A stretch of 64,000 nt of DNA, from sequence record PQ478073.1. One strand, 5' to 3'. The stretch is from a phage. Shown one piece after another: positions 30,601 to 55,917 of this stretch; within the stretch, counting starts at the first letter, position 1; each line of letters opens with the position of its first letter. The notes beneath the pieces were generated by a model. That model was not told the DNA's origin, made no database searches, and worked only from the letters and a program-made list of their open reading frames with translations. Both the position numbers and the translations under genes were made by a program.

Positions 30601-31600
30601 TCCAGTACATAGAACTATTACCATACTCATTACCTTTAGTGATTAGAACAACATCACCATCTTGAGGTTCACCACTTGGGCGTGATTCGGTTTCTTCTTC
30701 TGGATCTAGTGCTAAACCATAAACACGAGTACCATCTTGCATTTTTTTCACATATACATTATAAATTCTATTGTTTTCACCATTGTTACCAATACTGGTG
30801 AATAGAATACGCATTCCATCTTGCGGAATAATACCATCAATACGTATACCACTATTAATATCTTTTTGAACGATATCTTCAGGTTTAATAATATCAGAGA
30901 ACAGATCAACAGTTCCACGGAATTTTGTACCGTAGTTAATTAGCTCAATATTTTTATTATATTCAATAATTGGTGCACGTGCACGAATAAAACGTGAATC
31001 TTGCATTAATTCTTCAGTTAATATTGAGCCATCTTCTAATGTTTCACCTAAAGTATACCAAAAGTTTTGTAGTGACCATGTATTACCATTAAGTGCTCCG
31101 CGTTCCATTACAATGTAATCAGGTGAAGTAATATTATAAGAGTTTTTAGTATCCCAAAGATATGAGCTAAAATTGTTCATTTTATTTGGGTTAATAGCTG
31201 GAGTCCATGCATAAAACTTACCGTTGAACAAACGGCTTTCATTATCGGTTAGTGCTCCATAATGATTCATGTATCCAACTAGATCATCATAAAATTGAAT
31301 TGAACGAATTGTCGAATCATCATTTTTTGAGACGTAAGCAGTGGACAACTGATAAAGTTGACGTGCTACAGTACTTTCATGTAAGAAGATATTACCAGCA
31401 GCGGCAGGAGAACCCATATCACCAATATAGCCGTCAACTAATTCGTTTTCAGCCGGATTAAACCATTGTTGAATAACATCATCACTGACTTTTTGAATAT
31501 CTTCTAAGCCTTGCATCCACTCAGGCAATCTTTTAATAAAAAGCTTCTTCTGTACTGCTTCAGCCATCTGTGTAGGTTGAAACTTAAAATTATTAGTCAT
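21629..31600 (-). CDS. giant baseplate-associated structural protein (3323 aa from ATG 31600; 3333 aa from ATG 31630)
   Basis: Single uninterrupted ORF of ~10 kb, last gene of the baseplate operon after the gp25-like and gp6-like genes (the gp7 position in T4/P2-type order). ATG 31600 has a GGAG SD; the track ATG at 31630 has none. Confidence 0.6.
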   Translation of the reverse strand: MTNNFKFQPTQMAEAVQKKLFIKRLPEWMQGLEDIQKVSDDVIQQWFNPAENELVDGYIGDMGSPAAAGNIFLHESTVARQLYQLSTAYVSKNDDSTIRSIQFYDDLVGYMNHYGALTDNESRLFNGKFYAWTPAINPNKMNNFSSYLWDTKNSYNITSPDYIVMERGALNGNTWSLQNFWYTLGETLEDGSILTEELMQDSRFIRARAPIIEYNKNIELINYGTKFRGTVDLFSDIIKPEDIVQKDINSGIRIDGIIPQDGMRILFTSIGNNGENNRIYNVYVKKMQDGTRVYGLALDPEEETESRPSGEPQDGDVVLITKGNEYGNSSMYWNGSLWVRAQSKTSVNVFPKFQLYDRNGIKLDNSTTYPSSNFKGSELFGFKINYNYATDSVYGYNIELGDYNYYIYENFLQSQRYTYDHLGKEVEIDGLYYYNIIDENNEMNLQTDWVRSEEYSKQFVKQTPQVKRTDMYRVFSTVYDMEVFKEPVDGMYAYVIEVDRTYQYYKADRETYLDWHPITGDGVQIVKYDHTFELAQKVLDNDSDIIEVVVDGVDVSKYTKNVSKGQVQSITLDSTVELDEDSVIQIRTYSSTVTPDKELGAYEVPINLQNNPYNSNIIYINQGDYTLHFQDIIQKNITRGSSDDFNDYEERLAKGLVNNGVGTKIIQNEASMLPLMAHTANEDIDLFEATMFMQSEYFRFINKFNTQMLRMYDENPSDFLQNSAANIVDAILTTINMGRDSSFPFYYDNVGSTSGFIRAFIPPTPQFLGILQAYVPEKATFLTAGSKPSCYNISHTGIISKAYRVINGVDKMDDVVYELENRIFNSIDNKFKDVDYVPVLNSDDLFPTPYFTKTEYSAEEKQTLLLRGYINFTATNGISNSTHDYDPNNWRTWNYTGTYYVVNGQSTEIPARGSWRAIYTDQYGTYRPATHPWEMFGFTQRPTWWNQEYEPTAVQVGERDSDVVYVYEALVMNEQGDLVPSGLWDIDGSIGDSSTGTILFGDRRGQYDKYKRFGVQPFKITKTGNKTSSGIDICVVEYIAPEILGLVSGSLNHRAEPWTYGDMGDMEFTYMNTTLFAYDQMMLLYKAKPAQFANYFWDTRNDNLKEVFTDGSQFLYGDTRKRINFDKNTVVHGENSTRTIGYQMFVSDHLMYQNKNITTKYGDVVRSSYINVGHKIGGFTKADQLTFNAKSFGLISQENQTIGLVRSNNIRDEQMSAIKITWNGSAYQIDGYDLVGAKFKYKLPVKNGRKVTLKLENRNVVHYNEWKSEASIEYGKVFNSYQEVYTFICGYGEYLKEHGWIFEDVNDSGAQQDWNTIAKDFVIWSQNSLVTGEFISCTPSAANAKFGADFGSVQSITQNNGGVWSLLDDNNQGIRQYEIETSRIGNIFTVRTLESNKRIALIRLSLCSYEHAVIFDDKTIFGDYIYQPTYGSIQELIKMYGYITGSWTGRLQAPGFIILEAGTLPSFEKLVSDFQHYYDSETPVSDVQLQELSNHLIGYQSRDYLQRMISSDVSRVDFYKGFIHDKGTNQVLERVLRVSKSYDTDEYKALQEWAFKIGTYGNIDGKKNLQFKLINDQFKQQPQMVSFDVNATSNGNGNHIVYFGEQGKDPRWITRPNGKFSFPMRSGRSENIQLPDIGPVTLDEVSYTTKDFSTAYNDRITYTNGKGENPESVWMFKDGNGLWNIFELVDTNVQMVSITPIENTDVYAEQFCKVTLTDNVPLEDGDYYYFVDETNFMPDTLTVESQYYTAGSDPKVMVVPFDTSIDIEFTDPDTRPRLYRYVSRFASTDERQAYIDKKYSFKAPQSTLFDRPTTYDERTNITELYLNVYDPINGVIPGAAMQNVTYTSPVDPAQYNSNGELIQAWGADKVGQVWWNTSTAFYLDYTRAIYDADGNVDIDATNEYKRYNWGRLLPHSTIDVLEWVCSPVEPYNWDKYCKDVAKKNKNNTMYLPSGTALEDNYSTFLEYDSSTDSYVTKYYFWVRDTIYVPPLHTRTKSCTDIARIIKDPTQLNIPWFAPINENSFILSNMQFKVNDDTSILTVSYYMDSTEVVKHDQYQLCKEGDSYNFNPLIWDSMWNSLIGQETTESGSVINLLYPDVDNGLGSNKTWFQNVIEARRNFVESANNYYRSQNITTNSVVMEDVFNVKTTEVNPNEVSFRVLSYNNELVIAVESDKFKENDAVILSTSGYLPNPLTSSAVYFIHFDENGYIQLMNSPANAGSVVTITLENKGEGQHKMIKQSDYVESLGTSLDMTQYWSYADWYDVGYDSNTTYTQESSLEDANTKNYQVGDIIRVTDSENIWTLYIKSQSRDSIYWKAIGRENSTVELNDMLYADYSVHNDNGSLSNREINVRKALALLKNSFDLHQSEIVFDMVKYVHVEQSVVDWVFKTSYIYIVGLEQSLVQNYSNDNLINQIVEYFEEVKPYRTKIRSQIEQKTSDDDLIKGLCNDLDPNGYIFVDGSWVKTEKDIWDYEYAQFNEITQKWEQVGSLPSDFITPNRRFQEIDIIMHYDNIQCKPNADLASINELVSVNNKYQSNEKDAVSNYELQRYIYSFPEYSEETFDLLIAYQMQIYYPELDVTLGTAYGVNQWYKDHAEDLEATDEFTATLERVYKESTQNDMFTDLRQYVQYNTLANRLKLYKDISDEKIHDEVGCGFSGLTYNDNPSTRLPLGFSSSNDYNYGYFEISSELYQKYISLIKDKNPDASDYEVKVKLEVEYGVYVYRYDEVGGDTRFYTDAIHVLAGMRGLFDKDATDKYEKAEEILSKTPIDIYAITMIPRKYVYLNVNGVYQSIPDEQSIDDFMEDYFITNGEMIELAEINLDDLPLDQNNPMYSDYQYILDSITEAKYFNDMNAFDNLALESQTSSIKWEVKDDEVDPYIVDISDINPSGRDVGQIRFTVDGYGFDNVSLVQLRDNSRYQTEGMAIINPYKHTEAIVSIPSYAKIENDINKTTSKFDEKYFYRVRSINSLTEAEIVDNDLSDGDKVMIFTPDGEDFVRYQNHTWETILRVSNIKNNTTPILFTVRNTGKETIELIDESTGAVLRYDNITLAQQNEPVQPLALNIVRVRTFADPEFVKNGIKLYEQNRNYTIDVINYDVFYDTTLNGGKYNDGITPDDVDVWIISNEIFDVDGITIDNGYNLPITGAGVLSELARTKMTDSLEINVIEYDSSVIQPFRNNEGIWVYGYPMVDGMYIGVVGGTVTNITTISEENTTYVSQPKSISPYSIRNNVLSGSAANINDIISIGYEKVEVRNANNLLRGVMYSAEHDFKLNTTYSFNGINLGNYDMLKRYTQNSYTIDLSVYTDSLQVSGNDIKNILLVK

Positions 31601-31636
31601 TTTTGGACTCCATATAATTCGTTCATTCATTTGATT

Positions 31637-31679: not shown

Positions 31680-34600
31680 TTAAGAACCGATATTAATATT
31701 ACTTTTAGCTAGTGAGTTAACAATTTGAACATTTTCAACAGATGCAGTACTCAAGAATATTTGGTCTGAACGTGAAGGGATTTCAAATAGAGAACCAAAT
31801 TTTGAATTTGGATTTTGTGCAACTATAACAATAGTACTAATATGTCTACCTAACTGTGAGTGTATGTAAGTACACAAATCAGTATAATAGAAACTTTCAC
31901 CGAAATCCCAGTTATCAACATTGAAGTATTCATTAGTTAATGCTATGACATTTTGACGAATTTCATCATCACTCATTGTGCTGTTTGGTAATTTCACTAC
32001 TTTAAAATCAGCTTTGTAATCTTCAGCAGCACTGTTTCCAAATAAAGGTAAGTACTCAGCACTATGCCAAATGATACTATCACTAATGACTATTTTTTGT
32101 TCAACATCTTTGAACATATCTTTTAATTCAACCGATGTTGGTGGTTTAGGAATACTACCAACAGCATTATTTTTCAACCAAACGTCAACTTCAGTTTTAT
32201 ATGAATTGGTTAATACATACATATCAATTAAGTTTGTTCTACTAGGATCAATGCGATTGTCGTCAGGTGCATAGTGTTTCCAATGGAAGTCTATACTAGT
32301 ACGTGCATTAGTTTTAACAGTGTACTGTGAAGTAACATCTTTGTATCCATAATAATCTAGCTTCTGATTCTCGTCAGCATTAGTTCCCATGTTATTAATT
32401 GCACGATAAAAAGCCAATTCAGGACTAACAGTGCCAGTATCATCGGAATAAGTTAAATTACTAATTAGTTGTCCCAAACGATCATTGTTATTGCCAACTG
32501 TTTGTTCAATAAAATAATATTTACCATCATAGTTAAAACCAACTAAAAATCCAGAACCTTTACTATATAATCCACTCAATGTGGTTGAACGAATTGCGTT
32601 ATTTCTAACAAATTCAGTTCTTTTATATGCATTCGGCTCTGCCAAAGCTTGTTCCATTGTATAAGACCACGATGAATCAAGAAGTGTGAAGGTATCATTT
32701 GGTAACGACAGTACTGATATAGTGAAATCACTATTTTCCTGAAATACCAAAATACCACCATATTTTAATGCATCGGTTCCAGTCCAAGTAGGAACAATTT
32801 CTTTAAATTGGTTTGGTTCCAATGGTATACCATTACTATCTACTTTCCTAGATGTAACAATAACACGAGAACCATCTAGATAGCCATTCTCTTGTTGAAT
32901 TGTGTCATAAATTTGAAAATCTATATTACTTGTCAATCCTGAATTACTACTACTAGTAGTGTTAGATGATAAAATTTCAATCTTATCACTTTGAACTGTA
33001 CCAGTACTTATATCAGTAATTTTTTTAGATGATACAAAGTAAAATCTTACTTTTTCTCCACCCACAAAAATATATTCAATACCGTTAGCATCAAATTCCC
33101 AAGTTTCTGCTGTATATTTTACATTTATTATAATTAAAACTTCATTACCATTATACACAATAGTATCGTCATTAGTACTTGCTTCGATTGGAACCCATGA
33201 AGTTGTTTCTTTATCATGTACAATTACAAAATCGGTTTTTTTATCCAACATAGCAGAAATAGACTGAACTTCAACTGTGTTAAATCTAGTTCTATATGGT
33301 AATATGTACTCTATTGCTTGCATTCCACTAGGAACAGATGTGCTTAGTACATAAAAACCATTATCTAACACACTTACAACACTTGCCCATATCGTAGTAC
33401 CAGAATTAGAAAATTTAATAAGAGTACCTACCTGATACGAACCATACACTGTTCCAGACGAACCCAAAATTCTGCCATATGTATTGGTTGTGTAATTTGA
33501 ATTGTACACTGGAGTCCATGCTTGTTGTATTTCAATACCAATTGTATTGGATGGATACGCTTGATAACGTTGTATTACTGCATTTTCCCCAATCAATGGT
33601 TGAATATTGTCAATAACAATACTAGCATTTGTTTTTGTAGTTGGGAGCAATAACGATCTATTAAATTGCGTGTTTTCTTGATATAATGCACCATCATCAC
33701 TAAAAACGTCGGTATTCTGATACTTACCAGTAGGATCATTGATATCAATGAACCTTGATTGACCACTATAAATTCTATTAATAGCTTTAGATTTAAGTAC
33801 TGTATTTCCTAAACTAAGTGGTGCTATATTATAATCTTCACCATTGACAAAACGGTTTTGGGTATAGTACATTTGTGGTGCACGTGCTTTAATCTGCTCA
33901 ATAGTTTCAGCACTTTGTGCACGGTCGGACTCATATTGTAATGAAAAACGTATATCCAATGTACTAGATTCATAACTTGACTGTGTTTTTGTACGATATG
34001 TATATTTTACGCTTTTATTTTGAATTTCAGAAGTTTTAATGTTATATGTTTTACCATTACTAACACGATACCATACACGGAACGTCCCACGGGGAACAAC
34101 ACCACTTCTTGAGTCTGGGTACTTAATTGTTATTTGGTCTTTATCACGAGTAGTAACAGCAAAAATTGTTTTTAATTGACGATTAACAGTGTTATATGCA
34201 ATACTTTCCATTGATGGAACTTTTGTCCATTTGGTACGAACAATACCATCTTCATTTATTTCTTGAACCCATACATCAGTTTCGTTGATATTATCAACGT
34301 TAATATCTTGTATACGGTTCTCTTCACGGATAGCATATTGATAATCTTGATATGTTAATGTACCTTGTACGAAATATACAAAAAACCCAGTATTTGGTGA
34401 GCTAAATCCATTACCATCATTTTGATAAACAATATATTTTTGCTCTTGTGGTTCTGGATGTCGTTCTTCAACACCAACAGACGTAATGTCAGGATTCACT
34501 ACTTCAAATGTCATAGATTCACCATTGACAGTTGCAATAAATGGAATACTGGGTGCTGTCATTGGGATGGTGTTCATTCGATATAGTTGACGGGAGACAC

Positions 34601-35141
34601 CATTAACATCAATACGCTTGACTGGATTACCAAATTGGTTAGTACTGACAAATGAACTGTTCATTACTAGAATAAAGTTTTCATACCAGTTAGCATCCAT
34701 CGGGTCATTCCAACGAATAATTTTATCTTTTAATGATTCATTAAAACTATTACGAACATCTTGGTTTGTTTTAATTTCGGTTAATTTAGCAACTGCACGA
34801 CCTGGATATGAGCGGCGTGGTGAGTAAGAAATCATTTTAGCTAGTTTTAGTACTGATGCACGACGAGTTGCAGTATCTAAAAAGTTTTCACGTGTGTTCA
34901 AATCCATACGAAATGCCAAGTTCTGACCTAGCATAGAAATCGTATCTAAAATAAAAATAAACTGGTCGTTTTCGATCCAGTCATTGAATGAGTCTGGGTA
35001 AGTTGCACGTAGATAATCAATCATACTCTGACGGATAGTGTCGAAATCATAAGCTGTTAGATTGATTTTATAAAAACTTTCATATACTTGAGTCCAATCC
35101 TCACCAGCGTATAAATTTGATTGCCTTTTTTGTTGTGACAT
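31680..35141 (-). CDS. baseplate wedge protein, gp6 / Baseplate-J-like candidate (1153 aa)
   Basis: Sits immediately downstream of the gp25-like gene (the conserved gp25-gp6 / W-J order); AAGGA SD. The assignment is mainly positional. Confidence 0.45.
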   Translation of the reverse strand: MSQQKRQSNLYAGEDWTQVYESFYKINLTAYDFDTIRQSMIDYLRATYPDSFNDWIENDQFIFILDTISMLGQNLAFRMDLNTRENFLDTATRRASVLKLAKMISYSPRRSYPGRAVAKLTEIKTNQDVRNSFNESLKDKIIRWNDPMDANWYENFILVMNSSFVSTNQFGNPVKRIDVNGVSRQLYRMNTIPMTAPSIPFIATVNGESMTFEVVNPDITSVGVEERHPEPQEQKYIVYQNDGNGFSSPNTGFFVYFVQGTLTYQDYQYAIREENRIQDINVDNINETDVWVQEINEDGIVRTKWTKVPSMESIAYNTVNRQLKTIFAVTTRDKDQITIKYPDSRSGVVPRGTFRVWYRVSNGKTYNIKTSEIQNKSVKYTYRTKTQSSYESSTLDIRFSLQYESDRAQSAETIEQIKARAPQMYYTQNRFVNGEDYNIAPLSLGNTVLKSKAINRIYSGQSRFIDINDPTGKYQNTDVFSDDGALYQENTQFNRSLLLPTTKTNASIVIDNIQPLIGENAVIQRYQAYPSNTIGIEIQQAWTPVYNSNYTTNTYGRILGSSGTVYGSYQVGTLIKFSNSGTTIWASVVSVLDNGFYVLSTSVPSGMQAIEYILPYRTRFNTVEVQSISAMLDKKTDFVIVHDKETTSWVPIEASTNDDTIVYNGNEVLIIINVKYTAETWEFDANGIEYIFVGGEKVRFYFVSSKKITDISTGTVQSDKIEILSSNTTSSSNSGLTSNIDFQIYDTIQQENGYLDGSRVIVTSRKVDSNGIPLEPNQFKEIVPTWTGTDALKYGGILVFQENSDFTISVLSLPNDTFTLLDSSWSYTMEQALAEPNAYKRTEFVRNNAIRSTTLSGLYSKGSGFLVGFNYDGKYYFIEQTVGNNNDRLGQLISNLTYSDDTGTVSPELAFYRAINNMGTNADENQKLDYYGYKDVTSQYTVKTNARTSIDFHWKHYAPDDNRIDPSRTNLIDMYVLTNSYKTEVDVWLKNNAVGSIPKPPTSVELKDMFKDVEQKIVISDSIIWHSAEYLPLFGNSAAEDYKADFKVVKLPNSTMSDDEIRQNVIALTNEYFNVDNWDFGESFYYTDLCTYIHSQLGRHISTIVIVAQNPNSKFGSLFEIPSRSDQIFLSTASVENVQIVNSLAKSNINIGS

Positions 35142-35199
35142 AATTTATTCCTTTAAATCAGTAAAGTACTAGTTCAGTACTGGGAATTATATATAGAAA

Positions 35200-35206
35200 T
35201 ATTTAT
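35200..35206 (-). promoter_or_regulatory. candidate late promoter (ATAAATAT) for gp6-like gene
   Basis: Minus-strand ATAAATA(T) between the terminator and the SD of the 35141 start. Confidence 0.35.
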
Positions 35207-35214
35207 TCAAAAAG

Positions 35215-35238
35215 AAAAGCACTCCGAAGAGTGCTTTT
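35215..35238 (-). terminator. intrinsic terminator (minus strand), UUCG tetraloop
   Basis: Plus-strand AAAAGCACTC-cgaa-GAGTGCTTTT; on the minus strand the hairpin is followed by TTTTCTTTTT. Confidence 0.7.
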
Positions 35239-35242
35239 ATAA

Positions 35243-36157: not shown

Positions 36158-36165
36158 TATTTATA
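36158..36165 (-). promoter_or_regulatory. candidate late promoter (TATAAATA) for lysozyme gene
   Basis: Exact minus-strand TATAAATA 17 nt upstream of ATG 36141. Confidence 0.4.
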
Positions 36166-42161: not shown

Positions 42162-42207
42162 CTTTTTGATTCTCCATAATAAGGGAACATTTGATGTATT
42201 TATACGT

Positions 42208-42292: not shown

Positions 42293-43132
42293 ATGACAAA
42301 TAGACCAAAGCGTAAAAAGTATCTCAATAATGCTGATTTACTTCGTGAAATACAAAAAAGTAAAATTTCATATTGCTGGTTATTAGACAAATCATATAGT
42401 ATGTATGATTATATTGTTTTTCATGAGTCAGAAATTACTGCTGAGTTACTAGAAAAAGCTAAGGCAGCACGAATTAAACGACTGAACAATGAAATGCTTG
42501 ATAGTATTCGTGAAAAGGAAAATATGAGTGCTAAAAAAGCTAAAGAATATGCAGATGAACACAATTTAGTTATCACTGACGTTCCAATTGATGAAGTTGT
42601 TATTCGTGTTATTACAGATGAACATATTCCACCAGATACTAGAGTTAACTTTGAACCATTCAAGCATTATATTGTAGATAATGAAGGTATTCTCTATGAA
42701 GTTTGTCGTTCTCACTGGAAAGGCGACCTTGAAACTGGTGAATTCAGTACTGTTCATGGTAAAATTACAAATGAACTTGGGAAGATGTTCATTAAACTTG
42801 CAGAGGAAATCTCACACAAATCTAATTACAGAAACTATACATACTTAGATGAAATGATGGGTGATGCAAGAATACAATTAGTTAAAAACGCACTTCTCTT
42901 TAAAGAGAGCATTCTTTATAAAAAAGATAAACCAGCAGTTCAGCTAAATCCTTTCTCTTACTATACATCATTCGTAAACAATAGTTTTCGTTCTATATTG
43001 AATAGTGAGAAAAATGTTCGAAATATACGTGATGATTTACTTGAAATGCATGGCTTTACGCCATCACATACACGTCAAATTGAAATTGAATTGAACATGA
43101 TTGAAAGGAAAAATGAAGATGGCTCTGTTTGA
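42293..43132 (+). CDS. 55: late-transcription sigma factor, gp55-like (279 aa)
   Basis: N-terminus KRKKYLNNADLLREIQKSK matches T4 gp55 (KPKYNYVNNKELLQAI); lies directly upstream of gp47/gp46 as in T4; ~90 aa longer than T4 gp55. Confidence 0.65.
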   Translation: MTNRPKRKKYLNNADLLREIQKSKISYCWLLDKSYSMYDYIVFHESEITAELLEKAKAARIKRLNNEMLDSIREKENMSAKKAKEYADEHNLVITDVPIDEVVIRVITDEHIPPDTRVNFEPFKHYIVDNEGILYEVCRSHWKGDLETGEFSTVHGKITNELGKMFIKLAEEISHKSNYRNYTYLDEMMGDARIQLVKNALLFKESILYKKDKPAVQLNPFSYYTSFVNNSFRSILNSEKNVRNIRDDLLEMHGFTPSHTRQIEIELNMIERKNEDGSV

Positions 43133-44150
43133 TAAAGCAATTACATTCACTGATATTCATTTAGGTTTAAAGAATAACAGCAAGCAACACAATGAAGATT
43201 GTTTAAACTTCATTAAATTCATGATTGAGGTAGCTAAAAAAAATAATATCAAAGTTTGTGTTTTTATGGGAGATTATTTTCATAATAGAAGTAATATCAA
43301 TATCCAAACACTAAACTATGGTTTACAAATTCTTCAATTATTAAATGATAATTTTGAAAAAGTATATTTTTTAGTAGGCAACCATGATATGTATCATAAA
43401 AACAAACGTGATATAACAAGTATCAATATGGCTCAAGTTTATGAAAATATAGAATTCATTAATGAAATTACAACATTTGATGATTGTACTTTCATTCCAT
43501 TTATGATTGAAGATGAATATAAGTTGTTACCTCAACTAAAAAGTAAGTATGTTTTTGGTCACTTAGAGTTACCAGGTTACTTGCTTAACAAGATGGTAGA
43601 AATGCCTGATCATGGAAAAGAAACAGAAGGTTCTTTTGGTGGTTGTGAGTATGTTTTTAGTGGACATTTTCATAAAAGGCAGTCAAAAACAACTTCAAAA
43701 GGAACTCGTGTAGTTTATACTGGTAATTGTTTTCCACATAATTTTTCCGATACATGGGATGATGCAAGAGGTGTAATGATCCTTGAACATGGTAAAGAAC
43801 CTATTTTCAAATCATGGGAACATGCACCAAAATATAGAACATTTACACTTTCAGAATTGTTAACTGATCCTGGTTATTATCTTCAAGATAATACAATATC
43901 AAAAGTTCAAGTTGATATATCAATAACAACAGATGAGATTAGTTTTATTCGTGATACATTTACTAAACTTTACAACATTAGAGAGTTTAATGTTGTAACG
44001 AGCAAGCAAAGTATCGCAGAATTAATTGAAGATGGTGTTAGTTTTGAAAGTACTGAATCAGTTGATGAGATTGTGTTGCAGCAAATTATGGAAATTGACT
44101 CACCCATGTTTGATAAAAATCTTCTAATCCAAATTTACAGATCGTTATAA
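43119..44150 (+). CDS. 47: recombination/repair nuclease subunit, gp47 / Mre11-SbcD-like (343 aa from ATG 43119)
   Basis: Calcineurin-like phosphoesterase motifs: TDIHLG, GDYFH, LVGNHDMYH, SGHFH. Track start 43101 is TTG. Confidence 0.88.
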   Translation: MALFDKAITFTDIHLGLKNNSKQHNEDCLNFIKFMIEVAKKNNIKVCVFMGDYFHNRSNINIQTLNYGLQILQLLNDNFEKVYFLVGNHDMYHKNKRDITSINMAQVYENIEFINEITTFDDCTFIPFMIEDEYKLLPQLKSKYVFGHLELPGYLLNKMVEMPDHGKETEGSFGGCEYVFSGHFHKRQSKTTSKGTRVVYTGNCFPHNFSDTWDDARGVMILEHGKEPIFKSWEHAPKYRTFTLSELLTDPGYYLQDNTISKVQVDISITTDEISFIRDTFTKLYNIREFNVVTSKQSIAELIEDGVSFESTESVDEIVLQQIMEIDSPMFDKNLLIQIYRSL

Positions 44151-44158
44151 GGGACTAT

Positions 44159-46306
44159 ATGCTAAACATTACACGTATATCTATGAGGAACTTCTTTTCA
44201 TTTGGTAATGCACCACAATCAATTGAATTGAATGGTTCTGACATTTCATTAGTACTGGGTCAAAATAATGATGCAGTTATTGAAGGTGGTGACAGCACCG
44301 GACGTCGAAATGGTGTCGGGAAAAGTGCTATTATTCAAGGATTAGTTTTTGGATTATTTGGGAAAAGTATTGGTAATGATATTAAAATTCCTAACTTAGT
44401 CAATAAAACTAATGGTAAAAATTGTGAAGTAGTTGTAGAGTTTGAAAAAGATGGTGTACAATATCTGGTTGAACGTGGGAGAAGTCCCACGTATTTCAAT
44501 TTTGTTACTTTAGGGAAAGATAATAAAATTGAAGATGAATCAAGGGGAGAAAAGAAAGACACACAAGAAGATTTGAATGAAATTCTTGGTATATCTCAAT
44601 TATTATTTGAACATATTGTAGTACTGAATGCTAACGTTGAACCTTTCTTAGCTTTATCCACACAAAAACAACGTGATATGATAGAAGAACTTCTTGGAAT
44701 AACACAGTTGACGGAAAAAGCTGAAATGCTAAAGGAGATGTATAAGGATACTAAACGTTTAGCCGAACAAGAAAAGTTCAAAAATGAAACTGTAGCTGCA
44801 AGTAATGAACGTATTCAAAAAAGTATTGAGACACTACAAGAACAGGCAAACCAGTTTGAAATTGATAAAAATAATAGAGTATCTAAGTTAAATGAAGAGT
44901 TGAATATATATAAAACTTTAGACTTTAATGACCTCTATGAAGCTGCTGATATAAAAGAGAAAGCTCTTATTCATAACGCAAAGCGTGGGGAAATCGAACG
45001 CCGTGTACAAGAGTTGGCTTTAAAATTTGATGCATATGACCGTGAACTTGAAAGATCTAAAAGAGCATTAAATCTAAGCATTGATAAGCTAAAAACTATT
45101 GATATTAGTGCAGAATTGGAAAATCATAATGAGTTGGAGATATGGAAACAGTTAGAGGGTATTCTAAAAGAGAATAATAACCAAAAACGTTTCAAAGAAC
45201 AAAAACTAAACTCACTAAAAATAGCTTTAAAAGGATATGAATGTTCAATTAATGCTGAAATTGACAAATTATCAACAGTTGAAAACAGCAAATGTCCACT
45301 TTGTATGTCTGAATTAGAACATAACGAACATACTTCTTCAATTAAAGACAAAATCCAAAGTACTATTAATGATCTTCAAGCTAAAATTGATAGTTCTTCT
45401 TCTGAAATTGAAACATTACTTCAAGAAATTGATAGTATTGAGATTTTTGATATGCCACCTAAGCCTGTGACATATTATAATACACTTTCAGAAGCACAAA
45501 TGCATGAACATAAGCTTCAAGAATTGGTCAGAAAGAGTGAAGAAGAACAAATAAACATCTATGCAAATGAACTTATGTCATCATATGATGAACTTAACTC
45601 ATATGAACTAATGGAAGTTCCAGATACATTAAACAAATATGAAGTTAAAGAGTTAGAAATGACTGTAAATTCATTATCACAGCAATTAGATCGTGAATTG
45701 AAGACTACTAACACATTTATTAGCCAAATTAATACCCTGAAGACTGATTCTTTAGTACCAATCGATTATAGCGACTATAATAATCTTGATAAAATGTCAA
45801 ATCACCAAGATTTCTTGGTTAAATTACTTTTAAACAAGGATTCTTATGTCCGTAAACGTATTATTGAGCAAAATATCTCATATTTGAATACACGACTTCA
45901 GTACTATATCGATATGTGCGGTTCTGAGCATAATGTTGTGTTTTTGAATGATTTGAGTGTTGAAATTGAGAAGAGTGGACAGTACTTTGACTATAAACAG
46001 CTTAGTAGAGGTGAGCGTACAAGGGTAAACATCGCATTATCTTGTGCTTTCCGTGATACATATGAGTCATTATACCAAAGTATTAATATTCTTATCATTG
46101 ATGAGATGATTGACCAAGGTCTTGACTCAAGTGGTGTTCTACGTGTGTGGTCTATCTTCCAAGATATGGCTGCTGTACGTGGTAAGAACGTTTATGCTAT
46201 TTCCCACAGAGAAGAGTTACTATCTAAGACTGAAAAAATCCTCAAAGTTGTTAAAGAGGACGGTTTCAGTACTGTTGAATATGCAACCCTTGACGATGTT
46301 TTCTAA
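44159..46306 (+). CDS. 46: recombination/repair ATPase subunit, gp46 / Rad50-SbcC-like (715 aa)
   Basis: Walker A GRRNGVGKS; long central coiled coil with a CPLC zinc hook-like motif; signature LSRGERTRVNIAL and Walker B LIIDEMID. Confidence 0.88.
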   Translation: MLNITRISMRNFFSFGNAPQSIELNGSDISLVLGQNNDAVIEGGDSTGRRNGVGKSAIIQGLVFGLFGKSIGNDIKIPNLVNKTNGKNCEVVVEFEKDGVQYLVERGRSPTYFNFVTLGKDNKIEDESRGEKKDTQEDLNEILGISQLLFEHIVVLNANVEPFLALSTQKQRDMIEELLGITQLTEKAEMLKEMYKDTKRLAEQEKFKNETVAASNERIQKSIETLQEQANQFEIDKNNRVSKLNEELNIYKTLDFNDLYEAADIKEKALIHNAKRGEIERRVQELALKFDAYDRELERSKRALNLSIDKLKTIDISAELENHNELEIWKQLEGILKENNNQKRFKEQKLNSLKIALKGYECSINAEIDKLSTVENSKCPLCMSELEHNEHTSSIKDKIQSTINDLQAKIDSSSSEIETLLQEIDSIEIFDMPPKPVTYYNTLSEAQMHEHKLQELVRKSEEEQINIYANELMSSYDELNSYELMEVPDTLNKYEVKELEMTVNSLSQQLDRELKTTNTFISQINTLKTDSLVPIDYSDYNNLDKMSNHQDFLVKLLLNKDSYVRKRIIEQNISYLNTRLQYYIDMCGSEHNVVFLNDLSVEIEKSGQYFDYKQLSRGERTRVNIALSCAFRDTYESLYQSINILIIDEMIDQGLDSSGVLRVWSIFQDMAAVRGKNVYAISHREELLSKTEKILKVVKEDGFSTVEYATLDDVF

Positions 46307-46317
46307 TTAAAGATAAA

Positions 46318-46340
46318 GGGAGCCTTAGCTCCCTTTTTTT
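46318..46340. terminator. bidirectional intrinsic terminator
   Basis: GGGAGC-ctta-GCTCCC hairpin with T7 run (46334-46340) on plus and an A-rich run upstream; overlaps the stop of the convergent minus-strand gene. Confidence 0.75.
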
Positions 46341-46816
46341 ATATCAACCATATTTAATTTACCGTCCTTAATCAGCTTTCTAGCTTGCTTTACACGAGCA
46401 GTAGTGTTACTACCAGGGACAACTCCTAACCCTTCCAGAATCGCGTTTTGCTGTGTTGCTGGAAGCCTTTTAAACTTATTAACATCCACAGTTAGTGCAG
46501 TGTGATGTATAACTTGTTCATCGTCAGGAATGCTGTTATTACGCTCTAAGTAATCAGCAAGATTTCTGAGTACCTCATATAATGGTTTATCAGTTAAGTG
46601 CTTCATATATCGATTGAAGCTGTTTTGTACCTTTCCTTCCCAAGCATTGACTTCATTTTGAAGAACTTGTCTACAATGTTGGTTACCATAGTGGTAGTGA
46701 TCCAGTACTGGTTTAGTTATTGGTTCTTTAATTATAGGATCTATTCCATTTTGTTTCTTTAGCAATTCGTTTCGATAGTTTGCAGCATCCTTACTATCTT
46801 TTAATCTTTTTTTCAT
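46325..46816 (-). CDS. Endo VII-like (T4 gp49 family) protein lacking the Cys4 zinc cluster (163 aa)
   Basis: Aligns by eye to T4 Endo VII: QNG; LDHYHYGN vs LDHDHELNG; NAWEG vs NAAEG; FNR; L.NL..YL. The CxxC...CxxC zinc-site cysteines are absent. Confidence 0.5.
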   Translation of the reverse strand: MKKRLKDSKDAANYRNELLKKQNGIDPIIKEPITKPVLDHYHYGNQHCRQVLQNEVNAWEGKVQNSFNRYMKHLTDKPLYEVLRNLADYLERNNSIPDDEQVIHHTALTVDVNKFKRLPATQQNAILEGLGVVPGSNTTARVKQARKLIKDGKLNMVDIKKGS

Positions 46817-46846
46817 AATTCCTCACCAAACTATTTGTTATCAAAA

Positions 46847-46854
46847 TATTTATA
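46847..46854 (-). promoter_or_regulatory. candidate late promoter (TATAAATA) for Endo VII-like gene
   Basis: Exact minus-strand TATAAATA ~30 nt upstream of ATG 46816. Confidence 0.4.
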
Positions 46855-46908
46855 GATTAGTTATTTGCAATATTTTAAGTACTTAATGAATATTTTTATA
46901 AAAATAGT

Positions 46909-46936
46909 GAGACAACTTTAAAGTTTGTGCTATAAT
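46909..46936 (+). promoter_or_regulatory. orphan sigma70-type promoter with extended -10, facing an ORF-free region
   Basis: -35 GAGACA (46909-46914), 16-nt spacer, TGcTATAAT (46928-46936); no ORF of 60 aa or more downstream on the plus strand for ~700 bp. Confidence 0.5.
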
Positions 46937-46942
46937 GTTTGT

Positions 46943-47396
46943 TGTAGTAATGACAATCCTGTTGAATGCAGAAATGCATATAAATTAGAACCTGATCCTA
47001 TCGAAAATGTAGATGGCAGATGAGCAGTTCAACAGTGCGATGAGCAAAAGAAACCCGTTAGATGTGGGCATAGTTTGAACCCCTCACGGCAATGCGGCTC
47101 AATAAAGAACTCCGATAAGCATACAGAGAGTTCCTAGATAGACATATAAGGATCGCACCTTACCAGATTTGCTAAGGGAGTTTATTAAGTGATTTTAATA
47201 AACAGCCTGAAGTTTGATTGTATAGACTTTCAGGTGAGTGTCAGGATGATTAAGACTGACGACCGTTGCACATGACTGCGATAGAGAGAAACAGAGCAAC
47301 CCGCTTTCGTTCTTAATATATTTTTAAGAAATTCGCAATACAATAAATGCTGAAACCATCAGCGTCAAGAAATAGAGACTTCATTGTCTCTTTTTT
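46943..47396 (+). ncRNA. candidate ~450-nt structured non-coding RNA (unknown class)
   Basis: Bounded by the promoter at 46909-46936 and a hairpin+T-run at 47374-47396; only ORFs of 21 codons or fewer; locally higher GC than surroundings; several local stems (e.g. CCTGAA/TTCAGG 47206-47234, GTCAG/CTGAC 47240-47260). No tRNA T-loop/acceptor pattern found. Confidence 0.35.
47374..47396 (+). terminator. intrinsic terminator (plus strand) ending the candidate ncRNA
   Basis: AGAGAC-ttcatt-GTCTCT hairpin followed by TTTTTTATT. Confidence 0.5.
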
Positions 47397-47404
47397 ATTG
47401 TCTT

Positions 47405-47424
47405 CATTCCCCTGCGGGGGGATG
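47405..47424. other. GC-rich hairpin (CATTCCCC-tgcg-GGGGGATG) not followed by a T-run on either strand
   Basis: 8-bp stem with G6 run, conspicuous in an AT-rich genome; possible RNA processing/stability element or protein-binding site. Confidence 0.3.
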
Positions 47425-47490
47425 AAAATGTCCTCAACAAATCCCGTCAAGTATTAAATCTTTTAAAGTTCTTTATAATTAATTTAATTA

Positions 47491-47555
47491 AATGAATATG
47501 AGTTACGTAGTAACGAATATTCTTCAGCTAACGAATGAAATGAGTTAGATGAATC
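47491..47555. repeat. iteron-like direct repeats in AT-rich spacer
   Basis: AA(C/T)GAAT at 47491, 47512 and 47530 (spacings 21 and 18 bp) with a partial (A)TGAAT at 47549; TAACGAAT twice (47511-47518, 47529-47536); ATGAGTTA twice (47498-47505, 47540-47547). Confidence 0.35.
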
Positions 47556-47612
47556 CAATAATATTAAAATTAATCCTTTCATAATTCAATTCAAATAATT
47601 CTGTAGTTTAAA

Positions 47613-47641
47613 ACCAAAAAAAACCAGCAACAATGTGCTGG
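47613..47641 (-). terminator. intrinsic terminator (minus strand) after the 69-aa gene
   Basis: CCAGCA-caatgt-GCTGG hairpin (plus 47623-47640); on the minus strand it is followed by TTTTTTTTGG (complement of 47613-47622). Confidence 0.75.
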
Positions 47642-47652
47642 CTATATGAAAA

Positions 47653-47862
47653 TTAGTGCTTCTCGTTTTGTTTTTTAATTTTTTTATTAAAAGACTTAAC
47701 TAATAAGTCTCTATCTATTAATGGCATATTAAGGAGTGTTCCATAGTCAATGTTATCCATATATACAGAACATTCCATTAGTGCATTTTTGATTTCTGAC
47801 TTATTCAGTTCTATCTCCTTCAGTACTTCTTGTATTTCTTCAGGAGATGACTGGAGAAGCAT
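47653..47862 (-). CDS. hypothetical small protein (69 aa)
   Basis: Start overlaps the upstream stop (TAATG at 47860-47864), implying translational coupling; product unknown. Confidence 0.45.
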   Translation of the reverse strand: MLLQSSPEEIQEVLKEIELNKSEIKNALMECSVYMDNIDYGTLLNMPLIDRDLLVKSFNKKIKKQNEKH

Positions 47863-48698
47863 TACTCGAAAAAATGACTAGGATCATATTTTAGTCCATC
47901 AATTTCCCATTGATGATTACATCCATCACATTCTACTTCCATACTATGAGATACACCAATTTCAAGTACTTCATCCATTTTTTCACGAATTAGTTTAAGT
48001 ACTCCCTTCGATTGTTGTCCAAGCCATTCATTAATAAATTCTTTTTCAACTACTTCATCACCATCTGGTGTTATAATTTTTGCAATAACTCCACCAATCA
48101 TATCGAAGTTAAGTTGAGCCATGTTTTCAAATACTTCAGAAAATATTTTTACTTTTTCATCTTTATCAATATCAGCAGTTTCAAGAAACTTAGTCTTCTG
48201 CTGCTCACTGAACATGCGTTCAGCAAACGATGAATATTCTTTCCATGTCAGTGGTCTAAATTCTAAACGTAGTCCATTATCTAAATCAATTGATGGGATT
48301 TCTTCAAATGCTTGTGCAGTTTCAAGAAGATATGATAGATTACGTTCAAATCGACCTTCTTTTTCACATTCAGGACATACAACGTTAATATCATATGTTT
48401 CTTCTTTAGAAGCAACTTTAATAGCAATAAGAAGCATTTCAACGTCATTTACATACAACTCATCAGCGTCAATTACATTAGGAACACAGTTTTCAATAAC
48501 ACGGGATACTGCATCTCCGTTTAGTAACATATCGGGGGTATTAAGTGTCATTTCATCACGTGCACTACGTGCACAAACTCCACATTTGACACCTTTTGGG
48601 CCTAGAACTCCTTCTTTATAAGGAATAACGCCGTTTGTAACTAACTTAGTACTGATCTCTTCAATTTTAGTGTACTTAGCAAGTGGATTCATAGCCAT
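47862..48698 (-). CDS. hypothetical protein with paired CxxC motifs, putative zinc-binding (278 aa)
   Basis: CGVC...CPEC...CDGC motifs; GGAG SD; divergent from the head-module gene at 48829. Confidence 0.5.
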   Translation of the reverse strand: MAMNPLAKYTKIEEISTKLVTNGVIPYKEGVLGPKGVKCGVCARSARDEMTLNTPDMLLNGDAVSRVIENCVPNVIDADELYVNDVEMLLIAIKVASKEETYDINVVCPECEKEGRFERNLSYLLETAQAFEEIPSIDLDNGLRLEFRPLTWKEYSSFAERMFSEQQKTKFLETADIDKDEKVKIFSEVFENMAQLNFDMIGGVIAKIITPDGDEVVEKEFINEWLGQQSKGVLKLIREKMDEVLEIGVSHSMEVECDGCNHQWEIDGLKYDPSHFFE

Positions 48699-48789
48699 TT
48701 TATTAAATCTCCATGTAATAAATGTGTTTTAGTATTTATAAGACTAAAAAAGATTAAATTAAACTAATTTTTATATTCTCTATAGTTTC

Positions 48790-48796
48790 ATAAATA
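48790..48796 (+). promoter_or_regulatory. candidate late promoter (ATAAATA) for head-module first gene
   Basis: CATAAATAT ~33 nt upstream of ATG 48829; a TATAAT hexamer also present at 48801-48806. Confidence 0.3.
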
Positions 48797-48828
48797 TTTC
48801 TATAATACATCTATTAAAAGGGAATGTT

Positions 48829-51033
48829 ATGGCTGGAAATACAAGTGATTACCTACTCCAGCAGTTGGTTAATCAAACTAAAGATAACAACGATAGTTTG
48901 AGTGCTATACGTGAGTTATTGGCTGAAAATATAAAAAATGATAGAAAGAAATCCGGTTCTAAAAGTGGAAAACGTAATGGAAGTAATTCATCAAGTTCTG
49001 GAAACCGTGGCTCTCGAACAAATAACAAAGCTGATGATGGTAAAGAATTTGGAAAAATATTCAAATCATTATCATCTGAAGTATCGAATGTCGGCAAAAC
49101 TATGATGAGTACGTCTGCAAACGTTAGCAATGTTGTAAACTCACTAGGAATGAGTGCATCTTCATTTGCTGGTTCATTAGCAATGATCCCAGGTCCAGTT
49201 GGTGCAGCAGCATCTGCATTCAAATTGGTTGCTGACGCTGGTTTAGCAGTTTATAATGTGTTAAATGCACAGCTTGAAGTTTATAATAGAATAAACAGTG
49301 CTGGTGTCGCTCTATCTGAAGGTTACGGCTCCATATTAAAAGGTGCTGGTGCATCAATGATGAGTATTGATGCATTTGGTGAAGCATTACAAACTCATAG
49401 TGCCGTTGTTGCACAATTAGATGGTGCATATGGTGATGGTGTTTCTACATTTGGTAAATTATTGGGTACTGTGCAACAAGCACAAAATCAATTAGGTTTA
49501 TATGGTGTTTCTCAAAAAACATTAACTGATTTAACTGCACGTAATATTAAATTCCAAAAGCAATTTGGTGGAAGAGAAATGTTACGTAGTATGGATCAAG
49601 CAAAAAGTACTGAACAGTTTATCATGAGTATGACTAAGTTCAGTAAAAGTATGGGTGAGTCAGTTGATGCACTATTAAATAAAACACAAAACTTAGATAA
49701 ATCATTAGACACACGTTCAATGCAAATCGCATTACAAAACTATTCTGGATTATCTAGTAAAGCAGCAGTTGCAACATCAAAAGCATTTAACGAAGCTGCT
49801 GCCAGTATGGGTGATGCTGGTGCAGATTTTCTACGTTTAATTTCACATCGTTTAACTATTGGTGGAGTACCAGATGATTTATTGACTCCAGTACTGAACC
49901 AATTTGCTGATTTAGGTGAGAACTTGGTACGTAGTGGTGTTACTGATTCACAAGAAATTCGCCGTCAACAATTGGAATTTGTTAAAAAGAACAAAGAACT
50001 AATAAAGCAAGATTTATTAAATCAGATACAATTAGGAAACACTACGGCAGCAACCTTCAACCAACAACTACTTGATATGGAAGCTGCGATTAATGATCCT
50101 AAGAGTCAACCAGCAGATAAACTAACACAATTCACTGATAGATTCAATAGATGGATTAGTAAAGAATTTACTGAACCATTTAATAAAATGTATGCAGATA
50201 CACAAAATTCTATTGCGGATTACCTTACTGATATTGCAGACCGTACTGATGGTGCATGGGAATTTATCGGAGAGTTAGCACTTGATGGTTTTGGTTTGGT
50301 TCCTATTGCGAAAGATGCAGTTGCGTATTTGGATAGGATTGGTGGTGAGTTTGAGCAGTGGTTAGAAGGGTTAGGTACTGAAATTTTTGGTAGTGGATAT
50401 AATAAAGTTTCAGAAGCATTTGATAGCTTTATGAATAACCTAATGGATCTTCCTGGTAAACTTTGGGATTCTGTTAAAGGTTGGTTTGGTGGATCAGACG
50501 ACAAAGTAAAAGTAGAAAACAATTCTGTTACCGATGGTGCAGAAAAAGTTAATAATTATTTTGAAGAAAAAATGAATTCATTTGGTGATTATATTTCTAG
50601 TTCATTTGATGGTTTTTTAAAATGGAATTCAAGTAGAAACTTTAAACAACCAAAACCCCTTGATGAATCAGTTGCTGAAAAACTTATTAGTAGTGGTCTT
50701 GAAAATAAGCCAAGAGCAACTGCGAGAATCGAAAAATCTGAACATGTTGCACCATATGTTACCATAACTCCAAAAACTTTTGATAAATCAGCATGGGGTC
50801 CAAATGAACCACCAATTCAAGCTGAACCGGACGATTATGAGGCCATGAAAGCGATGATAAATAGTGGTAGTAGTATGGCAAATGCTAATAATAATGCCAC
50901 AATATCAGAAGACATGAAAGAGTTACTTAAAAAACTTGCTGATGTTAATGAGCAATCTCTATCTGCCGTGCAACAGACAAATAACTATCTAAGAACTATC
51001 TCTGAAAACACTCAAGGTGAGAGAAACAGTTAA
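48829..51033 (+). CDS. hypothetical virion-associated protein, Ala/Gly-rich helical (734 aa); possible tape-measure or internal protein
   Basis: Low-complexity basic/Ser N-terminus (GSKSGKRNGSNSSSSGNRGSR), long alpha-helix-type A/G/L/Q composition; directly upstream of the portal with the portal SD overlapping its stop. Confidence 0.35.
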   Translation: MAGNTSDYLLQQLVNQTKDNNDSLSAIRELLAENIKNDRKKSGSKSGKRNGSNSSSSGNRGSRTNNKADDGKEFGKIFKSLSSEVSNVGKTMMSTSANVSNVVNSLGMSASSFAGSLAMIPGPVGAAASAFKLVADAGLAVYNVLNAQLEVYNRINSAGVALSEGYGSILKGAGASMMSIDAFGEALQTHSAVVAQLDGAYGDGVSTFGKLLGTVQQAQNQLGLYGVSQKTLTDLTARNIKFQKQFGGREMLRSMDQAKSTEQFIMSMTKFSKSMGESVDALLNKTQNLDKSLDTRSMQIALQNYSGLSSKAAVATSKAFNEAAASMGDAGADFLRLISHRLTIGGVPDDLLTPVLNQFADLGENLVRSGVTDSQEIRRQQLEFVKKNKELIKQDLLNQIQLGNTTAATFNQQLLDMEAAINDPKSQPADKLTQFTDRFNRWISKEFTEPFNKMYADTQNSIADYLTDIADRTDGAWEFIGELALDGFGLVPIAKDAVAYLDRIGGEFEQWLEGLGTEIFGSGYNKVSEAFDSFMNNLMDLPGKLWDSVKGWFGGSDDKVKVENNSVTDGAEKVNNYFEEKMNSFGDYISSSFDGFLKWNSSRNFKQPKPLDESVAEKLISSGLENKPRATARIEKSEHVAPYVTITPKTFDKSAWGPNEPPIQAEPDDYEAMKAMINSGSSMANANNNATISEDMKELLKKLADVNEQSLSAVQQTNNYLRTISENTQGERNS

Positions 51034-54690: not shown

Positions 54691-54721
54691 TATAAATATC
54701 TGTATGTTGAAGTACAGATAT
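54691..54721 (+). promoter_or_regulatory. candidate late promoter TATAAATA overlapped by a 9-bp palindrome
   Basis: TATAAATA 54691-54698; perfect inverted repeat ATATCTGTA-N8-TACAGATAT (54696-54704, 54713-54721) spanning the -10 element and the expected start site. Confidence 0.4.
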
Positions 54722-55899: not shown

Positions 55900-55917
55900 T
55901 ATAAATAATATCATACT
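55900..55917 (+). promoter_or_regulatory. late promoter TATAAATA plus conserved 16-mer, for major capsid gene
   Basis: Exact TATAAATA (55900-55907) 45 nt upstream of ATG 55953; the same TAAATAATATCATACT block occurs at 53138-53153. Confidence 0.55.

Follow-up and report, generated by a model that had tools for sequence, protein, structure and literature searches.

A zinc-less variant of the endonuclease VII resolvase family in a Rak2-like jumbo coliphage

Introduction

T4 endonuclease VII (Endo VII, gp49) is the textbook phage Holliday-junction resolvase, and its four-cysteine (Cys4) zinc site is treated both as a signature of the family and as a requirement for DNA binding. In a stretch of phage DNA of 64,000 nucleotides (sequence record PQ478073.1; the whole stretch is called the window here), a minus-strand gene at 46325–46816 encodes a protein of 163 residues that a preliminary description, made from the letters alone, had singled out as an Endo VII-like resolvase candidate without any of the four zinc-ligand cysteines, leaving it either as a zinc-independent variant of the fold or as a repurposed DNA-binding protein. 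Can a protein of this kind belong to the Endo VII family, and could it act as a resolvase although the zinc site is gone?

The source of the window is an Asteriusvirus (Rak2-like) jumbo coliphage with Escherichia coli as its host. The region is 99.5–99.9% identical to the Escherichia jumbo phages JP4 (99.9%), SP27, phAPEC6, PBECO4 and UB, all of which are Rak2-like with genomes of ~350 kb. The Endo VII identity of the gene is already public and the label is correct: public records name it 'endonuclease VII', 'packaging and recombination endonuclease' or similar, and the paper on CBB, a related phage, places endonuclease VII beside gp46 (PMC5259590).

Results

The active site of Endo VII is retained and the zinc site is absent

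We placed the protein in a MAFFT alignment of 154 sequences, comprising T4 gp49, the rV5 endonuclease, the query and 151 family representatives. All of the landmarks that had been matched by eye in the preliminary description align to T4 gp49: Q22-N23-G24 with Q19-N20-G21 of T4, L38-D39-H40-x-H42 with L39-D40-H41-x-H43, N57-x-x-E60-G61 with N62-x-x-E65-G66, F67-N68-R69 with F72-N73-R74, and L83-x-N85-L86-x-x-Y89-L90 with L88-x-N90-L91-x-x-Y94-L95. The active-site residues are also present, as had been supposed, with D40, H41, H43, R54, N62 and E65 of T4 corresponding to D39, H40, H42, R49, N57 and E60 of the query. Its D, H, H, R and N match the DHHRN motif on a beta-beta-alpha-metal core; the residues of this motif are essential in both T4 Endo VII and F-CphI, and in the T4 enzyme D40, H41, H43 and N62 are needed for catalysis, with R54 universally conserved (PMC6083498).

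The Cys4 site, in turn, is fully absent. In T4 Endo VII, a CX2-4C and a CX2C motif coordinate one zinc (PMC6083498), and their cysteines C23, C26, C58 and C61 align with D26, I29, Q53 and V56 of the query, whose single cysteine is C48. A HMMER alignment to PDB entry 1e7d, which spans the second ligand pair only, agrees with MAFFT there.

Both features are shared by 120 close homologues (58–100% identity, mostly on ~350-kb contigs). D39, H40, H42, R49, N57, E60 and G61 each occur in 120 of 120, and the four ligand positions never hold more than one Cys: D26 never varies, I, T or L is found at position 29 and Q, D or E at position 53, and position 56 is V, save in 17 homologues with Cys. A sequencing error, which the preliminary description had named as one way in which its claim could fail, is excluded by this pattern and by the presence of the identical protein on 43 contigs, and the cysteines are truly absent.

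Profile and structure comparisons confirm the family relationship

Comparison of profiles and of predicted structure, the check proposed for this claim, gave a relationship to Endo VII by both routes. The PHROG 423 'endonuclease VII' profile matches residues 1–150 of the protein (E=1.3e-35). A profile of 15 clade members, searched against the T4 Endo VII structures (1e7d/1en7), aligned its positions 28–126 to T4 residues 32–130 (E=1e-5), which extends well past the catalytic motif, and a hidden Markov model (HMM) made from Cys4-bearing members only, T4 gp49 included, matches the open reading frame (ORF) with E=1e-28 and 97.8 bits. The best AlphaFold2 model, with a predicted local distance difference test score (pLDDT) of 93.1, consists of six helices and one beta-hairpin, and T4 Endo VII is likewise described as six helices and a hairpin (PMC10956419). 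Foldseek against the PDB returned three significant matches, all of them T4 Endo VII (E=1e-7 to 3e-6, template modelling (TM) scores of 0.69/0.72, 157 aligned columns).

The resemblance to Endo VII is far beyond chance, and the family relationship is confirmed. Because the Cys4 signature and the Pfam cut-off both fail, we file the protein as a zinc-less variant of the Endo VII resolvase family and not as a canonical member. Precomputed matches to the Pfam family PF02945 exist for a Cys4-bearing relative, P0148, and for a few members of the query's clade; NCBIfam has no model for the query and none for P0148. A Pfam GAAD match (E=0.062) was dismissed as noise.

Loss of the ligand cysteines is a trait of a large subfamily

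We then examined how far the loss extends among relatives, as the preliminary description had suggested, and found it to be widely shared. A HMMER scan of 1.84 billion cluster representatives gave 560 relatives at E≤0.001, and the best 152 of these 560 were classed by their ligand cysteines: 79 have none, 59 have one (nearly always the first), two have two, three are CCHC and nine are CCCC, such that 138 of the 152 hold no more than one. Conservation of the D-H-H-R-N residues is 99–100% among zinc-less and Cys4 members alike. The ligand positions read D, L, S, T in the rV5 endonuclease and, by manual reading, S, T, Q, E in the annotated endonuclease VII of the Ralstonia phage RSB1, a podovirus; the trait therefore spans several phage groups. 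Cysteine loss is a trait of a large, diverse subfamily and is not private to this gene. In the searchable literature, we found nothing that describes this subfamily as zinc-less, and a family-wide study calls the flanking cysteine pairs highly conserved (PMC6083498); the zinc-less branch of the Endo VII family is apparently undescribed.

At the column of T4 E65, the wider zinc-less subfamily has Leu in ~43% and Glu in ~40%, compared with Glu in 85% of the Cys4 members; in the query's own clade it is Glu (E60 of the query) in 120 of 120. Judged by this column, the active site may be altered further in some of the zinc-less subfamily.

As to whether the zinc-less state arose by one loss or by several, we computed a neighbour-joining tree with the ligand columns excluded. 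Most Cys4 members fall near its T4 root, and P0148 and P0154 (both CCCC) adjoin the query's clade. Fitch parsimony counts five changes on this tree, which is star-like with long terminal branches and has an untrustworthy topology. P0148 (150 residues) is 39% identical to the query over the full length, including the C-terminal region (BLASTP E=5e-24), and passes PF02945. It is encoded on a 50-kb metagenomic phage contig directly beside baseplate genes, with gp46-like (SMC_N/AAA_23) and gp47-like genes within ~5 kb. This level of identity, together with the comparable neighbourhood, argues that the query's ancestor was a zinc-bearing resolvase and not another kind of HNH protein.

A T4-type late-promoter motif precedes the gene

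The exact T4-type late-promoter motif, TATAAATA, that had been reported upstream of the gene is indeed found there (Table 1). It occurs six times in the window, compared with ~11 occurrences expected from shuffles, and all six copies are intergenic, lie on the strand of the next gene and stand 16–47 nucleotides upstream of its start codon, a zone that makes up ~1.9% of each strand. Behind five of these copies stand structural or hypothetical genes (baseplate, hub and head region), and behind the sixth the Endo VII gene. The 7-mer ATAAATA is at promoter position in 14 of 18 cases in the window; it has been proposed as the late motif of CBB and GAP32, where a gp55-like factor is encoded as well (PMC5259590).

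The six copies look like a clean set of gp55-type late promoters, presumably read by the gp55-like sigma factor encoded in the window. With TATAAATA just upstream, at about -10 of a predicted promoter, and a phage-encoded gp55-like factor, the Endo VII gene has the marks of a T4-type late gene, and its late expression in the source phage is well supported by these sequence features, from which the timing is predicted. Upstream of Endo VII in fEgEco12 the sequence reads CATAAATA.

A probable active resolvase and its alternatives

In our judgement, the protein is probably an active, late-expressed junction resolvase of the Endo VII type that needs no structural zinc. Domain-swapped homodimers are a mark of the Endo VII family; going by its homology to T4 gp49, the protein would be a dimeric beta-beta-alpha-metal (His-Me finger) enzyme, in which H40 would act as the general base, D39 and N57 would hold the catalytic Mg2+, and H42, R49 and E60 would complete the active site. 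Its gene would be transcribed late, along with the structural genes, from the gp55-type TATAAATA promoter, and transcripts are predicted to end at the hairpin that it has in common with the convergent gp46-like gene. The enzyme would cut Holliday junctions and other branches left in phage DNA by replication and recombination, and this debranching before headful packaging would let the ~350-kb genome be packaged. In place of the zinc tether, Asp26 may make a polar contact, either with Gln53 or with the N-terminal end of the catalytic helix, and added hydrophobic and aromatic packing by W59 and Y70 could share zinc's tethering role; aromatics are enriched at the W59 and Y70 columns in the zinc-less group. 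Loss of zinc-chelating residues with the fold kept is known and recurrent in the His-Me finger group (PMC4999995), and the proposal is therefore plausible and the surprise limited. Extended from this one protein to the lineage, the same proposal is held with somewhat less assurance, although we still favour it: a large natural Endo VII lineage, found in Rak2-like phages, rV5-like phages and some podoviruses, would fold, bind DNA and cut without structural zinc, the Cys4 knuckle having given way to an Asp/aliphatic/polar/aliphatic set of residues plus aromatic packing.

Several observations weigh against an active zinc-less resolvase. The C23S and C61S mutants of T4 Endo VII are inactive and do not bind DNA (PMC6083498), so that activity without the zinc site cannot be assumed, and our literature search found no biochemical data on any zinc-less member. 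The protein scores 14.8 bits against PF02945 and misses its gathering threshold of 23.6, a single-sequence phmmer search against the PDB gave no match at E≤10, and only one of the five AlphaFold2 models is highly confident, the other four having pLDDT values of 82, 67, 66 and 64. The absence of other resolvase families from the genome is tentative, as the searches for homologues of RuvC, RusA and T7 endonuclease I, which gave no significant match, used approximate queries and had low sensitivity. Lastly, no ATAAATA is found near the Endo VII start in GAP32, K64-1 or Hallingskeid, where TATAAATA is also unconserved; the late-promoter motif is not a conserved feature of the Endo VII gene across relatives.

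The alternative that survives best, and that we nevertheless think unlikely, is an active His-Me finger nuclease that does not resolve junctions and serves, for instance, in homing, the degradation of host DNA or nicking at mismatches. Such a role fits poorly with the similarity to T4 Endo VII over the full length and with the N-terminal position of the catalytic motif, which is the arrangement of the resolvase clade and not of the endonuclease clade (PMC6083498). Unlike sporadic homing genes, the gene also has a fixed syntenic place by gp46/47-like genes in every relative examined, and GAP32, K64-1, Erwinia phage Hallingskeid and fEgEco12 all share the order of baseplate hub, small ORFs, Endo VII and convergent gp46.

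Copy number also speaks against such a role, with one copy per genome. We searched six-frame translations of the complete genome of the congener ECO103 4-12-1 (351,992 bp), the window and 129 kb of JP4 with both family HMMs. Each genome gave a single Endo VII-family ORF, with no further match below E=0.3; neither the window, nor the JP4 pieces, nor the 352-kb ECO103 4-12-1 genome contained a second, canonical Endo VII. With tblastn, 323 records gave 324 places, all but one record having a single place. In a survey of jumbo phages, T4 Endo VII-like resolvases are nearly complementary to RuvC in their occurrence (PMC7824862); the text of that survey makes no explicit mention of the Rak2-like group.

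A weak T7 endonuclease I-like match (E=0.12) was considered as a replacement resolvase and rejected. The matching protein of 148 residues, encoded in ECO103 4-12-1 outside the window (L016 39757–40200, minus strand), matches PHROG 218 'head closure' (E=2e-40) and the Pfam TnsA-like endonuclease N-terminal domain (60.6 bits), and appears from these matches to be a head-completion protein with a restriction-endonuclease-like fold. We take it to resemble the counterpart of T4 gp4. T4 has gp4 alongside gp49, and the 148-residue protein is therefore no evidence of a replacement resolvase.

Still more doubtful is an active Endo VII-type nuclease that keeps a structural metal at a degenerate site, with the ligands changed and the metal retained; its candidate ligands would be Asp26, the polar side chain at position 53 and a nearby residue, for instance Cys48 or His47. 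The composition of the old ligand positions in the zinc-less group is non-random and bears on this idea in two ways. Residues at position 1 are never a random choice (Asp 60%, Cys 39% among 136 zinc-less representatives), 87% have His, Asp, Ser or Gln at position 3, and within the clade the invariant Asp26 is accompanied by Cys48 in 115 of 120 members, all of which would suit a remodelled site. Positions 2 (Thr in 54%, Leu in 25%, Ile also seen) and 4 (Val, Ser, Ala or Thr) are, however, aliphatic or small non-ligands, which leaves at most two plausible ligands, and the query itself has at position 3 a Gln, a poor metal ligand. Nor is the Cys48 column enriched, with Cys in 32% of zinc-less and 46% of Cys4 members; on the same count, we rejected Cys48 as a compensation for the lost zinc.

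The gene is under strong purifying selection, with a ratio of nonsynonymous to synonymous substitution rates (dN/dS, Nei-Gojobori) of 0.059 against fEgEco12, 0.091 against GAP32 and 0.140 against ECO103 4-12-1. A non-catalytic DNA-binding or structural protein that keeps only the Endo VII scaffold, the repurposed protein of the preliminary description, is very improbable: the structural zinc that T4 Endo VII needs for DNA binding (PMC6083498) is gone, the C-terminal part resembles SAP-type DNA-binding domains and Leu is common at the T4 E65 position in the wider subfamily, as such a protein would allow, but complete conservation of the catalytic residues in the clade, E60 included, is unexpected without catalysis, dN/dS is only 0.06–0.14, and no second Endo VII-family gene is present that could stand in as the enzyme. 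These three observations, invariant catalytic residues, low dN/dS and a sole Endo VII-family gene in the congener, disfavour repurposing and lend support to the other option put forward at the outset, a zinc-independent variant of the fold.

Gene, locus and neighbours

The features of the locus are collected in Table 1. The hairpin at the end of the gene is common to the convergent gp46-like and Endo VII genes and scores as a terminator on both strands; its loop contains the Endo VII stop codon, and its stem the last codons before it. Beyond the baseplate hub gene follow portal, prohead protease and major head genes, according to the annotation of JP4.

Table 1. Features of the Endo VII locus and exact copies of the late-promoter motif in the window.
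Feature	Position	Strand	Remarks
Endo VII homologue, coding sequence including stop	46325..46816	-	ATG 46816-46814, TAA 46327-46325; 163 residues
N-terminal beta-beta-alpha-metal nuclease core	~residues 22-70 of the 163-residue protein
Helical C-terminal part	~residues 79-150 of the 163-residue protein
Shine-Dalgarno-like sequence GGTGAGGA	46820..46827	-	3 nucleotides upstream of the Endo VII ATG; putative, read directly from the sequence
T4-type late-promoter motif TATAAATA	46847..46854	-	exact; 30 nucleotides upstream of the Endo VII ATG
Other exact TATAAATA	36158-36165, 42197-42204, 48733-48740	-	
Other exact TATAAATA	54691-54698, 55900-55907	+	
Bidirectional intrinsic-terminator-like hairpin	46315..46336	both	terminator scan: 9-bp stem, 5 GC pairs
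gp55-like late sigma factor	42293..43132	+	JP4 annotation 'sigma factor for late transcription'
gp47-like recombination nuclease subunit	43101..44150	+	JP4 annotation SbcD-like
gp46-like recombination nuclease subunit (SbcC/Rad50-like, 715 residues)	44159..46306	+	JP4 annotation SbcC-like; convergent with Endo VII
Baseplate hub gene	47862..48698	-	JP4 annotation

Between the Endo VII and hub genes, ~1 kb (46817–47861) holds very small ORFs only, for which JP4 annotates five hypotheticals of 32–69 residues. This spacer contains several terminator-like hairpins, including 47374–47391 and 47622–47643, as well as a sigma-70-like match with an extended -10 element on the plus strand (46907–46936), and a counterpart of it was found in fEgEco12, GAP32 and Hallingskeid. 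An Rfam scan of 46200–48900 gave no family above threshold and two sub-threshold terminator-like matches only.

Relatives differ in some details of the Endo VII gene and its surroundings. In the Klebsiella phage K64-1, an extra hypothetical ORF of 343 residues (L006 1992–3023) stands between the unannotated Endo VII gene and gp46, unlike in the other relatives examined, where only the shared terminator separates the two. The annotated Endo VII start of Hallingskeid (L007 1405–1977) adds 30 N-terminal residues that occur in no homologue, and the true start is probably the internal Met of MSRRRLKDSK. The ECO103 4-12-1 gene (L015 31945–32466) is a mosaic relative to window positions 46328–46816: its first 300 nucleotides are 72% identical to the window gene and encode an N-terminal part that looks more GAP32-like, and its last 189 nucleotides are 98.9% identical, with 63 of 63 amino acids equal. 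This pattern implies recombination with a breakpoint near codon 100, which separates the catalytic core from the C-terminal part.

Further from the locus, JP4 has an HNH endonuclease gene of 765 nucleotides (L004 2409–3173) between two baseplate wedge genes, at a place where the window has ~100 nucleotides of a different spacer (~35142–35242); this presence and absence is a polymorphism typical of homing endonucleases. The window also contains a single ORF of 3333 residues on the minus strand (21629–31630), followed by one of 1153 residues (31680–35141), the JP4 counterpart of which is a baseplate wedge subunit.

Discussion

Among the nearest relatives of the query, most have lost the Cys4 site and kept the active site perfectly. 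If the proposal holds for the lineage, a zinc site that is essential in T4 Endo VII would be dispensable for fold and chemistry, and the lineage would hold natural 'zinc-out' variants, with Cys4 sisters such as P0148, from which the role of zinc could be learned. If zinc-less members are active, the family definition is too narrow, as PF02945 misses the query, and zinc would be purely scaffolding and replaceable by protein packing; matched zinc-plus and zinc-minus orthologues would then be at hand for work on structure and stability and for the design of a junction or mismatch nuclease that is metal-independent and oxidation-insensitive. For annotation, the message is that the gene would be the phage's resolvase, under a label that is already right.

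Among known systems, zinc-ligand loss in the His-Me finger group has been described in cases from other families (PMC4999995), and we found no description of it in the literature within the Endo VII resolvase family. Compared with the DHHRN family as defined with F-CphI (PMC6083498), the query has all of D, H, H, R and N, and its motif is N-terminal as in the 'resolvase clade'; the conserved CX2-4C and CX2C of that family are, in contrast, absent from the query and from most of its 152 nearest representatives.

T4 gp49 itself (PDB 1EN7, 1E7D, 1E7L, 2QNC and 2QNF) is of the same length class (157 residues against 163) and has the same predicted architecture, an N-terminal beta-beta-alpha-metal core with a helical C-terminal part, the same catalytic residues D, H, H, R, N and E, and a like neighbourhood logic, with T4-type recombination genes and a late-type promoter motif. 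The query differs from it in that all four zinc ligands are replaced (C23 by D, C26 by I, C58 by Q and C61 by V), in a loop before the first beta-strand that is four residues shorter, and in being too diverged for single-sequence detection and for the Pfam cut-off.

The closest parallels are the annotated 'endonuclease VII' proteins of rV5-like phages (Vequintavirinae), of RSB1 (Autographiviridae) and of Rak2-like phages (GAP32, CBB and K64-1), together with PHROG 423, which belong to the same subfamily and whose ligand cysteines are also gone. The rV5-like and related proteins are 41–50% identical to the query over the catalytic half, and in the rV5 endonuclease, cysteines other than the ligands occur at shifted positions. 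The rV5-like, RSB1 and Rak2-like groups are unlike one another in their C-terminal halves.
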